From assembly GCF_001677475.2 (NCBI RefSeq), contig NZ_CP015229.1: a stretch of DNA of 64,000 nucleotides; one strand, written 5' to 3'. How positions within the stretch are numbered: the first letter of the stretch is position 1; each line of letters opens with the position of its first letter. This stretch comes from Escherichia coli. Lineage in GTDB: Bacteria > Pseudomonadota > Gammaproteobacteria > Enterobacterales > Enterobacteriaceae. This document shows positions 15,873 to 42,061 of this stretch, one piece after another. Under the pieces are notes generated by a model. That model did no database searches. It was given only the letters and a program-made list of their open reading frames with translations, and was not told where the DNA came from. A program made the position numbers and the translations under genes.

Positions 15873-18236
<2,364 letters not shown>

Positions 18237-18362
18237 GGCCTGCTCCTCACCTGATTAATTTTTTCTTTCTGTTTTGCTTTCGCTAAGCAACTTTTAGCTC
18301 ACTCATTATTTACCATTTGATAACAAATGTTTGGTCTTTCGTGCCATGTAAAAAAACCGCCC

Positions 18363-18366
18363 CGAA
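18363..18366. repeat. Target-site duplication CGAA (left copy)
   Basis: Identical CGAA directly abuts both IS ends (second copy 19808..19811). Confidence 0.7.
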
Positions 18367-18384
18367 TGAACTGCACCCCAAAAG

Positions 18385-18939
18385 TTGGACACTCAACGAA
18401 GTAAGGTGCAGTTTTTTATGAGTAAATATTCTCTCAGCTTTAAGCTTGAGGTTGTGCAGCACTATCTTTCCGGCATGGAAGGGCAGAAAGCGACTGCAAA
18501 GCGTTTTGGTATCGATCACAGTGCCGTTCGTAAGTGGACTGCTGCCTGGAAGCTTCATGGCGAAGCCGGACTTACCACCCGGCATTTCGCCTATTCTCCC
18601 GTCTTTAAAGAGTCCGTTATCCTGCATATGCGTGAGCACCGGTTGTCTGTTCGCGAAGTCTGTGCAAAATTCACTATTCCGGCTTTCTCCACGGTCCTTC
18701 TGTGGGAACGCCTGTATGATGAAGGGGGATTAGAAGCCCTCACTGACAGCCGACGCGGGAGAAAAACGATGCCAGAACGCCCTGAAAATAACCCGGCACC
18801 TTCTTTACAGGCTCCTCTTAACCATGATGAACGAGAGGAACTTGAACAACTGCGTGTTGAAGTGGCTTATCTAAAAAAGTTGCAGGCCTTGCTCAGGGAA
18901 AAAAGCACGTCAAAACGCGGGATAAAACGCAGATCGTGA
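18385..18939 (+). CDS. IS3-family transposase OrfA (HTH DNA-binding, leucine-zipper C-terminus)
   Basis: ORF track 184 aa; resembles IS150-group OrfA architecture; contains in-frame A_AAA_AAG slippery heptamer. Confidence 0.85.
   Translation: MDTQRSKVQFFMSKYSLSFKLEVVQHYLSGMEGQKATAKRFGIDHSAVRKWTAAWKLHGEAGLTTRHFAYSPVFKESVILHMREHRLSVREVCAKFTIPAFSTVLLWERLYDEGGLEALTDSRRGRKTMPERPENNPAPSLQAPLNHDEREELEQLRVEVAYLKKLQALLREKSTSKRGIKRRS
18873..18879 (+). promoter_or_regulatory. Programmed -1 ribosomal frameshift slippery heptamer A_AAA_AAG
   Basis: In orfA frame codons CTA AAA AAG; -1 frame is open from here into orfB (checked codon by codon to 18936). Confidence 0.7.
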
Positions 18940-19775
18940 ATGAGTTAAGGCCGGACTTCCCTCTTGCGCGCTTGTTAAAAGCGGCAGGGCTGGCGAGAAG
19001 TACGTTCTACTGGCAACTGGCGAGCGGTAAAAAACCAGACAAATATGCCGATGATAAGCGGCAGATTTTAACGCTGTTCCATAAACATAAAGGACGGTAT
19101 GGATACAGGCGAATCACGCTGGCTATCCGCCGGGAAGGAAGCTTACTGAACCATAAAAAGGTTCAGAGGTTAATGAAGGCGTTAGATTTAACCTGCTGTA
19201 TCAGAAGGAAGAAATACAACTCTTACAGAGGCCGGTATGGGAAAGTGGCGGGTAATGTGCTGAACCGGCAGTTCAGTGCGGATAAGCCCAACCAGAAGTG
19301 GGTAACAGATGTCACGGAATTTAAAATCAGCGGAGAAAAACTGTATCTGTCCCCCGTTCTGGATCTGTATAACGGAGAAATAGTTGCGTATCAGATGGCG
19401 TCCCGTCCTCTTCTGTCGATGGTGGATGACATGCTGTTGAAGGCTGTATCTGTACTGGGTAAAGACGAATACCCGCTGCTCCACTCAGATCAGGGCTGGC
19501 AATATCAGATGGCGCATTATCAGAACCGGCTTAAGGAGGCTGGTCTGAAACAGAGCATGTCAAGGAAGGGGAACTGTCATGACAATGCGGTGATGGAAAG
19601 CTTCTTCGGCACGCTGAAATCTGAGTGTTTTTACCTGATGGAACACAAGAATATCAGCGAGTTGCGCATGGCTATCGATAATTACATCCACTATTACAAC
19701 CATGAAAGAATAAAACAGAAACTGAAAGGCCTGAGTCCGGTAGAGTACCGAACCCAGGCCCTGATAGCCGCTTAA
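18936..19775 (+). CDS. IS3-family transposase OrfB (DDE catalytic domain), probably expressed as OrfAB fusion
   Basis: ORF track 279 aa; motifs HSDQGWQYQ and NCHDNAVMESFFGTLKSE typical of IS3-family integrase core. Confidence 0.85.
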   Translation: MNELRPDFPLARLLKAAGLARSTFYWQLASGKKPDKYADDKRQILTLFHKHKGRYGYRRITLAIRREGSLLNHKKVQRLMKALDLTCCIRRKKYNSYRGRYGKVAGNVLNRQFSADKPNQKWVTDVTEFKISGEKLYLSPVLDLYNGEIVAYQMASRPLLSMVDDMLLKAVSVLGKDEYPLLHSDQGWQYQMAHYQNRLKEAGLKQSMSRKGNCHDNAVMESFFGTLKSECFYLMEHKNISELRMAIDNYIHYYNHERIKQKLKGLSPVEYRTQALIAA

Positions 19776-19807
19776 TATAAACCGTCCAACATTATGGGGT
19801 CAGTTCA

Positions 19808-19811
19808 CGAA
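19808..19811. repeat. Target-site duplication CGAA (right copy)
   Basis: See left copy. Confidence 0.7.
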
Positions 19812-19823
19812 GGGCGGCTCTGT

Positions 19824-21470
19824 TTATTTCACACAGCGGGTGCATTGTGTGAGTTGTATCTGCTGGAAGAAGTCATTTCCTTTATCATCCACAAGGATAA
19901 ACGCCGGGAAATCTTCCACTTCAATTTTCCAGATGGCTTCCATTCCCAGTTCCGGATATTCAACACATTCCAGGCTCTTAATACTTCCCTGCGCCAATAC
20001 AGCTGCCGGACCACCGATACTGCCGAGGTAGAAGCCGCCGTGTTTTTTACAAGCATCCGTCACCTGCTGGCTGCGGTTGCCTTTCGCCAGCATGATCATA
20101 CTTCCGCCCTGCGCTTGCAGTTGATCGACATAAGAATCCATCCGTCCGGCGGTCGTTGGGCCAAGAGAACCGGAGGCATAACCTTCCGGCGTTTTGGCCG
20201 GACCCGCGTAGTAAATCGGATGATCTTTAATGTACTGCGGCAGCCCTTCACCGTTATCCATCCGCTCTTTCAGTTTGGCGTGAGCAATATCACGACCAAC
20301 GATAATCGTGCCATTCAGCGATAAGCGTGTAGAAACGGGATACTGCGACAACTGTGCGAGGATCTCTTTCATCGGACGGTTAAGGTCAACGCGCACCGCT
20401 TCGCCTTCTCCCGCTTTGCGCAGCTCTTCCGGGATATATTTGCCTGGATTATGTTCCAGTTTTTCGATCCAGACACCCTGACGGTTGATCTTCGCTTTGA
20501 TATTACGGTCAGCAGAACAGGAGACACCCATACCGACCGGGCAGGATGCGCCGTGACGTGGCAGGCGAATCACGCGGATGTCGTGAGCGAAGTATTTACC
20601 ACCAAACTGCGCACCCAGACCAAGATTTTGCGCTTCGATCAGCAATTCTTTTTCCAGTTCCACATCGCGGAACGCCTGACCGTGCTCATTCCCTTCCGTT
20701 GGTAGTTCATCATAGTATTTCGCGGAAGCCAGTTTCACCGTTTTAAGGTTCGTTTCTGCAGAAGTTCCACCAATAACGAACGCAATATGATACGGAGGAC
20801 AGGCCGCCGTACCCAGAGTGCGCATCTTCTCAACCAGGTAATTTTTCAGTTTCCCCGGCGTTAGTAACGCTTTGGTTTCCTGATAGAGATACGTCTTGTT
20901 TGCCGAACCACCACCTTTGGCGATACAGAGGAATTTGTACTCGTCGCCATCAACGGCATAAAGATCGATCTGCGCTGGCAGATTGGTGCCGGTATTCACC
21001 TCTTTATACATATCCAGTGGCGCGTTTTGCGAGTAGCGCAGATTATCTTCGATATAAGTGTTATAGACACCGCGCGCCAGCGCCGCTTCATCACCACCAC
21101 CGGTCCATACACGCTGCCCTTTTTTACCAACAATAATCGCGGTGCCGGTATCCTGACAGGTCGGCAGAATGCCTTTCGCCGCGATGTCGGAGTTACGCAG
21201 GAATTGCAGCGCCACATATTTATCATTTTCGCTGGCTTCTGGGTCACGCAGAATGTCGGCCACCTGTTGTTGGTGAGCCGGACGCAGCATAAACGACGCA
21301 TCATGAAACGCCTGACGCGCCAACAAAGTTAACGCTTCGGGTGCGACTTTCAAAATCTCCTGCCCTTCAAATTCAGATACGCTAACGTGTTCGCTGGTTA
21401 GCAGGTAATACTCAGTATCATCTTTTTTGAGTGGAAAAGGAGCCTGATAATGAAAGGGTTTGTTTGACAT
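19824..21470 (-). CDS. fumA: Fumarate hydratase class I (Fe-S, aerobic)
   Basis: ORF track 548 aa. Confidence 0.95.

Positions 21471-39268: not shown

Positions 39269-42061
<2,793 letters not shown>

Follow-up and report, generated by a model that had tools for sequence, protein, structure and literature searches.

A probable programmed −1 frameshift cassette in a complete ISEcB1 element inserted at the fumA terminator of Escherichia coli

Introduction

Does a short run of adenines within an insertion sequence of Escherichia coli join two overlapping reading frames into one transposase by programmed −1 frameshifting, and is the element that carries it still able to move? A sequence-only reading of the locus had answered yes to both, holding that the element looks capable of producing an OrfAB fusion and is potentially active rather than a decayed relic. 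Both claims are considered here for the window—the whole 64-kb stretch of DNA that was analysed—and in comparison with other E. coli genomes and with related elements. We conclude that the flagged stretch is very probably a programmed −1 ribosomal frameshift cassette, and that it belongs to a complete copy of ISEcB1, of the IS3 family and probably of its IS150 group.

Reading frames and the slippery heptamer

The upstream reading frame, orfA (18418–18939, plus strand), starts with an ATG at 18418 and ends with a TGA at 18937–18939; the ORF list gives it as a 173-aa protein, predicted to be a helix-turn-helix DNA-binding protein from its match to HTH_28 (1e-23). This exact OrfA protein is abundant, with 7626 index blocks of the public collection listing it. 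The second frame, orfB, lies on the same strand at −1 relative to orfA. Its last upstream stop is a TGA at 18858–18860, and it is open from 18861 to 19775, with matches to rve, rve_2, rve_3 and HTH_21; within it, the 279-aa ORF of the ORF list occupies 18936–19775, with a GTG at 18936 that overlaps the orfA stop as GTGA and a stop at 19773–19775. This is the layout of the IS3 family, with consecutive overlapping ORFs, orfB at −1 versus orfA, and a 79-nt overlap. The conceptual OrfAB fusion is 452 aa long.

The slippery heptamer A_AAA_AAG is at 18873–18879 on the plus strand. It is in the orfA phase, just as had been claimed, with codons CTA (18871–18873), AAA (18874–18876) and AAG (18877–18879), and the −1 frame does run without interruption from the slip site through the GTG at 18936 into the 279-aa DDE ORF and on to 19775. 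After a slip the sequence would be read as KKVAGLAQGKKHVKTRDKTQIVNELR, which is stop-free, and the predicted junction peptide of OrfAB is ...AYLKKVAGLAQGK. Two findings had been named as telling against this arrangement, a −1-frame stop between 18879 and 18936 and disrupted DDE residues in orfB. No such stop was found, and the DD(35)E triad is intact: alignment with IS150 and IS1397 places the catalytic residues at D298 of OrfAB (GAT at 19308–19310, in WVTDVTEF), D358 (GAT at 19488–19490, in LHSDQGWQY) and E394 (GAA at 19596–19598, in NAVMESFFGTLK), all on the plus strand, with 59 and 35 intervening residues and with K401 at position E+7.

The bare motif is unremarkable, AAAAAAG being present 21 times in the window against an expectation of 16.4 ± 4.1. 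The chance of an in-phase A_AAA_AAG in the 79-nt overlap, with its 24 possible positions, is about 0.0035. Only one other AAAAAAG outside the insertion sequence, at 42023–42029, is in phase with an ORF of at least 200 codons, and this candidate was rejected, the ORF being a spurious frame inside rsxC.

Conservation of the heptamer was examined in a scan of relatives using one genome per species, which returned 80 loci with 46–84% amino-acid identity, from the Enterobacterales, Acinetobacter, Burkholderiales, Halomonas, Rhizobiales and Clostridia. In at least 65 of the 80 an ORF-pairing script placed orfB at −1 and found that the overlap contains A6G or A7 in phase; most of its failures were truncated contigs or cases in which neighbouring ORFs were picked. 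IS150 and IS1397 also have A_AAA_AAG in phase. Of 52 distinct relatives, 36 have a Shine-Dalgarno (SD)-like tetramer 8–15 nt before the heptamer. It is absent upstream of the ISEcB1 heptamer, where there is GAAG instead of GAGG (TGAAGTGG), and because this element is missing the frameshift efficiency of ISEcB1 may be below that of its relatives.

The downstream hairpin

A downstream stem-loop or pseudoknot had been suggested for 18885–18935. A conserved hairpin was indeed found, but that range is too short to contain it: the predicted frameshift-stimulating hairpin, supported by folding and covariation, is 68 nt long and extends from 18885 to 18952 (plus strand), separated from the heptamer by the 5-nt spacer UUGCA (18880–18884). 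Its stem is formed by GGCCUUGCUCA (18885–18895) paired with UGAG-U-UAAGGCC (18941–18952), giving 11 bp, of which the first four are G-C pairs, with U18945 bulged. The 45-nt loop holds the orfA stop and the orfB GTG, and the 3′ arm lies past the orfA stop. The predicted free energy is −20.6 kcal/mol (z = −2.87 versus shuffles). Folding the suggested range alone (about 18880–18945) gave nothing better than shuffles (z = +0.82), since the 3′ arm is at 18941–18952.

Rules for such structures have been derived from 271 IS3-family members by Sharma et al.: a start 4–10 nt past the motif, a length of 17–140 nt, closure by a G-C pair with three or more further pairs after it, and a ΔG of at least 7.6 kcal/mol in magnitude (PMC4066793). 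[quoted passage not shown]

Covariation was assessed in an alignment whose 5′ part was anchored on the heptamer and whose 3′ part was anchored on the conserved ELR codons of the orfB frame, and which was therefore not fitted to the structure. Among 47 distinct relatives 77.3% of cells are paired, compared with no more than 45% after sliding of the partner columns. Compensatory changes are seen at 8 of the 15 pairs (2 of 500 shuffles gave as many), and there are 54 compensated cells versus 14.7 ± 4.6 in the shuffles; the observed values for cells paired, compensated cells and covariation score were reached by none of the 500. In a Klebsiella aerogenes relative of 91.5% identity the sole change in the 5′ arm, G18891A, turns a G·U pair into A-U. 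Compared with the family consensus, the upper 4 bp of the ISEcB1 stem are one position out of register and involve a bulge. Both arms encode protein, and their conservation is therefore due in part to constraint on the amino-acid sequence. A search for an Rfam frameshift-element family in the region gave no match, the only two hits being chance matches with E-values above 3. A possible pseudoknot considered by eye, GGGAA (18896–18900) with UUCCC (18957–18961), was set aside; it would have a first loop of 0 nt, and no obvious counterpart was seen in relatives.

Identity and boundaries of the element

The element that carries this cassette, ISEcB1, is complete at 18367–19807 on the plus strand (1441 bp) and, compared from end to end with copies annotated in RefSeq, is 99.9% identical. 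Its ends were set by comparison with 13 other copies and from the flanking duplication, which put the right end at 19807. The left inverted repeat, TGAACTGCACCCCAAAAGTTGGACAC (18367–18392, plus strand), was identified in a repeat search and has a single occurrence in the 64-kb window; its tip is also present in relatives and in IS1397. The right inverted repeat, ..CCGTCCAACATTATGGGGTCAGTTCA, has CA as its last bases (19782–19807, plus strand) and was located by the repeat search together with comparison of other copies. The two repeats are imperfect—TGAACTGCACCCC... on the left and ...GGGGTCAGTTCA on the right—with TG at the start of the element and CA at its end. A target-site duplication, CGAA, is read directly on both sides, at 18363–18366 and at 19808–19811, and the right copy is also evident from comparison with the empty site. 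A consensus promoter scan of the left inverted repeat yielded no convincing promoter for orfA.

Under the ISfinder isoform criterion, a copy is assigned to a named insertion sequence if their full-length nucleotide identity is 95% or more. The window copy differs from the RefSeq-labelled copies, including that of REL606, by 1–2 positions in 1441 nt. The label on these matching copies is "IS3-like element ISEcB1 family transposase", and for other genomes RefSeq gives the CDS as a join of two pieces, noted as "programmed frameshift", which maps to 18418–19775 of the window. Family membership is evident in the protein and at the ends: in a profile search the 452-aa fusion scores 410.3 bits with NF033516 (IS3 family transposase; cutoff 160), and the TGAACTG...CAGTTCA ends, the 4-bp CGAA duplication and the length of 1441 bp are all features of the family, for which TG...CA ends, target duplications of 3–4 bp and lengths of about 1.2–1.55 kb have been described (PMC6211511). 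Placement in the IS150 group appears probable from pairwise comparison, the full-length OrfAB identities being 48% to IS150 and 46% to IS1397, the frameshift cassette being homologous, and the IS2 TnpB profile giving only 34 bits on the fusion. The exact 452-aa fusion has no match in the protein collection; we suspect that it is missing there because the called genes are the unjoined ORFs.

The insertion site and its hairpin

ISEcB1 lies between fumC (16833–18236, minus strand) and a class I fumarase gene (19824–21470, minus strand), which synteny with tus and rstB identifies as fumA, its RefSeq label being fumB. The insertion splits the intrinsic terminator of fumA. The distal half is at 18350–18362 (minus strand; A7 and CCGCCC on the plus strand, GGGCGG and U7 in the mRNA) and the proximal half of the stem is at 19812–19817 (minus strand; GGGCGG on the plus strand), 6 nt from the fumA stop at 19824–19826. 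When the site is rebuilt it folds as CCGCCC-CGAA-GGGCGG (in full, AAAAAAACCGCCC[CGAA]GGGCGG), and the fumA strand reads CCGCCC-UUCG-GGGCGG-U7 beginning 6 nt past the fumA stop, which is the form of an intrinsic terminator. The insertion puts 1.4 kb, with the opposite direction of transcription, between fumA and fumC, and the split terminator could alter fumA transcript ends and read-through between fumA and fumC.

The ISEcB1 clade appears to land repeatedly in the loops of terminator-like hairpins. At each of the four E. coli sites examined, and in K. aerogenes too, the target is a AAAAAACCGCC...GGCGG hairpin with the duplication in the loop. Among relatives in other genera, 24 insertion points were used, from elements whose ends and duplication could be defined without recourse to flank complementarity; 18 of these fall within the loop of a hairpin with a stem of 5 bp or longer and a loop no longer than 12 nt, compared with 4.4% of 1400 control positions taken from the same loci (binomial p about 4e-20). 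IS1397 and ISKpn1, in which the inverted-repeat tip is shared, are known to insert into REP/PU palindromes (PMC1525189). We tentatively put forward, as a possible reading, that ISEcB1 and its relatives, which share the TGAACTGCACCCC tip or, in a Firmicutes clade, a related tip, form a clade that inserts specifically into the loops of terminator-like hairpins in Proteobacteria and Firmicutes, with the fumA loop as a recurrent hotspot. On the same tentative footing, the REP-loop targeting of IS1397 and ISKpn1 would be widened to a structure-defined, terminator-wide target. No description of terminator-loop targeting for the ISEcB1 clade was found in the searchable literature, although it may already be described. 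If the reading is true, insertion sites could be predicted simply, and the clade would serve as a model of how a DDE transposase chooses its target by structure.

Copies, polymorphism and mobility

A megablast search of 5426 complete E. coli genomes found ISEcB1 in 116, at 165 places; in 93 of the 116 the best match has at least 99% identity. The median carrier has one copy, and one genome has the element at up to 5 places. When 13 other copies were compared base by base, the window copy differed from the commonest copy only at 18684, where it has T rather than C. This T is private to the window copy and is a synonymous change in orfA, and the proteins are identical to those of the commonest copy. 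The frameshift region is identical in all 13. Copies at different sites are 0–4 nt apart; the variants seen include an E>K missense change in the B-strain copy, at the equivalent of 19335, and a CGA>TGA nonsense change in the copy of one strain, at the equivalent of 19110.

The site itself is polymorphic. With the insertion sequence and one CGAA removed, the empty site is uninterrupted in 5392 of the 5426 genomes. Strains 23CRST009 and 19SZHZ869Rt also have ISEcB1 between fumC and fumA, with the duplication CCGA, 1 base to the left of CGAA, and with a fumC flank that is about 3% diverged; because of the offset duplication and the diverged flank, these insertions are independent of that in the window, though in the same loop. 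Further E. coli sites have their own duplications—CATG between yfbM and nuoN, AATT between sseA and sseB, and TTTT at another—giving at least four distinct chromosomal sites including fumA-fumC. A search of plasmids for additional sites yielded one full-length relative (91.5%) and otherwise only many 300-bp remnants. Together, these patterns, drawn from genome comparison, indicate that an element with the same proteins as the window copy has transposed recently.

An alternative that we consider unlikely is that the signal is intact by descent and that this copy, or ISEcB1 generally, transposes negligibly, so that "potentially active" is an overstatement. It draws on the long-term evolution experiment (LTEE), in which ISEcB1 is missing from the elements with new insertions reported over 50,000 generations, and in which the REL606 copy was called "incomplete" (PMC7881107); we find the REL606 copy to be full length. 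The single copy of the median carrier, the small number of carriers (116 of 5426) and the lack of the upstream SD-like stimulator also agree with quiescence. Against it are the at least four distinct E. coli sites, each with its own target duplication, the two independent insertions 1 nt apart in the fumA terminator loop, the presence of up to 5 places in one genome, and the 0–4 nt that separate copies at different sites, which imply recent spread. Our preferred reading is that the window copy is complete and probably mobile, and the earlier view of it as no relic but potentially active finds support in the intact ends and duplication, the proteins identical to those of the commonest copy, the polymorphic site, and the independent insertion nearby.

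The proposed recoding event

That the locus could yield an OrfAB fusion, as the sequence-only reading held, is borne out to the extent that every sequence requirement was found, namely the heptamer, the open frame, the hairpin, the NF033516 match and the DDE residues. In the proposed mechanism, ribosomes translating orfA would reach A_AAA_AAG with Lys-tRNAs on AAA and AAG, while the hairpin at 18885–18952, 5 nt downstream, would resist unwinding. Some ribosomes would then slip back by one base, onto AAA_AAA, and read on in the orfB frame, producing the 452-aa OrfAB, with an N-terminal HTH and a DDE catalytic core, as the transposase; those that do not slip would stop at 18937–18939 and release the 173-aa OrfA, a regulator of transposition in IS3-family models. 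E. coli Lys-tRNA has only the UUU anticodon, which pairs weakly with AAG (PMC4066793). We infer the slippage itself, its efficiency and the role of OrfAB as the active transposase from IS150, IS911 and IS3. For IS150, Vogele et al. in 1991 reportedly demonstrated ribosomal frameshifting directly at the site, with a stem-loop that stimulates high-level shifting; about one third of ribosomes are said to shift, and mutation of the stem to cut shifting by about 80%.

There is a second AAAAAAG at 18899–18905 (plus strand), which is in the orfB phase and not that of orfA, lies inside the hairpin loop, and is probably incidental. Its use as the real or an additional shift site is very improbable, and could take one of two forms: a frame-0 slip on the A_AAA tetramer at 18900–18903, still within the overlap, or a second slip of already shifted ribosomes on the orfB-phase A_AAA_AAG, giving a shortened product. 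Both its location within the 18861–18939 overlap and its orfB phase are compatible with this, as is the shift-prone behaviour of A_AAA and A_AAG tetramers in E. coli (PMC4066793). However, the run is not conserved—it is present as A7C in locus L003, but the 91.5% K. aerogenes relative has lost it (GGGAAAGAAG), as have more distant relatives—and an inner helix begins 1 nt after it, so that no stimulator is present at a proper spacing. The two sites predict different OrfAB junctions, ...LKKVAGLAQGKK... for the first heptamer and ...LLREKKHVK... for the second run.

Ribosomal slippage at 18873–18879 is likewise preferred over transcriptional slippage, in which RNA polymerase would lose one A from the mRNA on the A6 run and OrfAB would be translated from the altered message; the probability of this is slight. 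Some elements of the IS3 family and IS150 group do use transcriptional realignment on long runs of A or T, as in IS1447 (PMC6211511), and those relatives of ISEcB1 with A7 have a slightly longer run. The run in ISEcB1 is, however, only 6 A, the X_XXY_YYZ phase is kept, and a hairpin at 5–6 nt is a ribosomal signature. Transcriptional slippage is said by Baranov et al. in 2005 to need runs of roughly nine or more identical bases, and ribosomal frameshifting is, as noted, reported for the homologous IS150 site. It is similarly hard to credit that recoding is unneeded and that OrfB is made from the GTG at 18936 by termination-reinitiation coupling and works alongside OrfA, as the overlap of the GTG with the orfA stop and the separate 279-aa gene given by ORF callers might suggest, for the GTG has no Shine-Dalgarno sequence ahead of it and lies within the hairpin loop, the 25 open orfB-frame codons before it and the conservation of the in-phase heptamer would be left unexplained, and in studied IS3-family members it is the fusion protein that is the transposase (PMC6211511).

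Programmed ribosomal frameshifting thus remains the reading that we favour, and it bears on annotation: a single programmed-frameshift CDS should cover orfA and orfB, the element should carry the name ISEcB1, and the locus is best regarded not as two separate genes or a pseudogene but as a complete and probably mobile copy.

Relationships to known elements

The type copy of ISEcB1, in E. coli B, REL606 and BL21, is like the window copy in length, ends, ORFs, heptamer and hairpin, and the two are 99.9% identical. They differ in location, the type copy being between yfbM and nuoN with a CATG duplication and the window copy in the fumA-fumC terminator with CGAA; the window copy also lacks the E>K change (19335) of the B-strain copy and has its private T at 18684.

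IS150 (insJ/insK of K-12) shares with ISEcB1 the A_AAA_AAG heptamer, a 5–6 nt spacer and the OrfA/OrfAB layout, and the DDE residues of the two align. Its cassette consists of A_AAA_AAG, CUGAAA, and then a stem, GCCUUAGCUC/GAGCUAAGGC, that is homologous to that of ISEcB1, the common portion being GCCUU..UC / GA..AAGGC. The IS150 stem has 10 perfect bp and a loop of about 28 nt, whereas in ISEcB1 there are 11 bp, one bulge and a loop of 45 nt. At the tip of the inverted repeat IS150 reads TGTACTG and ISEcB1 TGAACTG, and we know of no hairpin-loop target preference for IS150.

IS1397 has a left tip that is nearly identical to that of ISEcB1 (TGAACTGCACCCCAAATGTTGGACA), an in-phase A_AAA_AAG, and an OrfAB that is 46% identical, but its downstream region is without a GCCUU stem of the ISEcB1 type. 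ISKpn1 matches the 3′ end of ISEcB1 with 77% nucleotide identity. Both IS1397 and ISKpn1 resemble ISEcB1 in inserting into the loop of a palindrome with a 3–4 bp duplication (PMC1525189). The targets seen for ISEcB1 are unique terminator-like hairpins, whereas those of IS1397 and ISKpn1 belong to the repeated REP/PU family.

More distant parallels are IS911, IS3 and the cellular gene dnaX. In IS911 and dnaX, −1 slippage takes place on the lysine codons of A_AAA_AAG and is stimulated by downstream RNA structure, and in insertion sequences it sets the ratio of OrfA to OrfAB. Both of these use an upstream SD-like stimulator, which ISEcB1 lacks; IS3 uses a pseudoknot, and the IS911 and IS3 proteins belong to a different subgroup, the IS3 group. 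The frameshift signal of ISEcB1 is already known, being a textbook recoding cassette of the IS3 family that is annotated as such by RefSeq.

Target sites of ISEcB1

ISEcB1, a 1441-bp element of the IS3 family (18367-19807) lying between fumC and fumA, is seated, as are its relatives, in the loop of a terminator-like hairpin, with a 3-4 bp duplication falling within the loop. In the window, the intrinsic terminator of fumA, a CCGCCC-CGAA-GGGCGG hairpin plus an A7/T7 run, is split by the element, and the two parts of the terminator, together with the duplication, are found at 18350-18366 and 19808-19817. Among relatives, 18 of the 24 definable sites are hairpin-loop sites, versus 4.4% of control positions. 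The loci listed for loop insertion of ISEcB1 and its relatives are L002, L007-L010, L013, L016, L019, L035, L036, L046, L052, L063, L067, L069, L074, L088, L089, L093 and L096.

The identical fumA terminator loop is occupied by ISEcB1, in the same orientation as in the window, in E. coli strains 23CRST009 and 19SZHZ869Rt (L085 and L086). The duplication in these strains is CCGA, versus CGAA in the window (18363-18366 and 19808-19811), an offset of 1 nt, and their fumC flank is approximately 3% diverged. The element in the two strains is an insertion independent of the window copy, at the same hotspot.

Between yfbM and nuoN (L001, L090 and L094), the left flank of some copies ends in ...CCGCCtgatttt, matching the flank at the L089 site, and no target duplication accompanies the copies with this left flank. 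This points to exchange among ISEcB1 copies, by recombination or gene conversion, that extends into the similar terminator stems.

Full-length, decayed and remnant copies

The REL606 copy (L002), described as 'incomplete' (PMC7881107), is full-length at 1441 bp, is flanked by the duplication CATG, and carries a single missense change, E>K, at the equivalent of window position 19335. The copy in strain D2 (CP010137, L092) is truly decayed, because orfB contains a CGA>TGA nonsense mutation at the equivalent of 19110. A remnant of approximately 300 bp of an ISEcB1-like 3' end (query positions 1133-1441, approximately 87% identity) is present in more than 400 Klebsiella plasmids; matches H115-H153 are to plasmids of Klebsiella pneumoniae, among them pK2044 and plasmids of the pLVPK type.

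The frameshift region

A second AAAAAAG (18899-18905) lies 26 nt 3' of the slippery heptamer (18873-18879), within the loop of the predicted frameshift hairpin; it is in the phase of the orfB frame and offers ribosomes in frame 0 an A_AAA tetramer. This second run is probably incidental, since it is lost in the 91.5% identical K. aerogenes relative (L096). On the antisense strand, still within the frameshift window, a weak hairpin of terminator-like form (CGCGTTTTGACGTG, then CTTTTTT; 18906-18919, minus strand) takes its T-run from the complement of this second A-run, and the hairpin could stop fumA read-through transcripts entering the element in antisense.

Outside the element, the only AAAAAAG in phase with a long ORF (at least 200 codons) is at 42023-42029 in rsxC (39839-42061); it was rejected as a recoding candidate, the alternative frame being spurious and in the repeat-rich 3' part of the gene.

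An SD-like GGAG or GAGG is located 8-15 nt 5' of the heptamer in 36 of 52 distinct relatives. ISEcB1 has TGAAGTGG in its place (18858-18872), the motif being missing because a synonymous GAA replaces GAG, and its frameshift signal may consequently be weaker.
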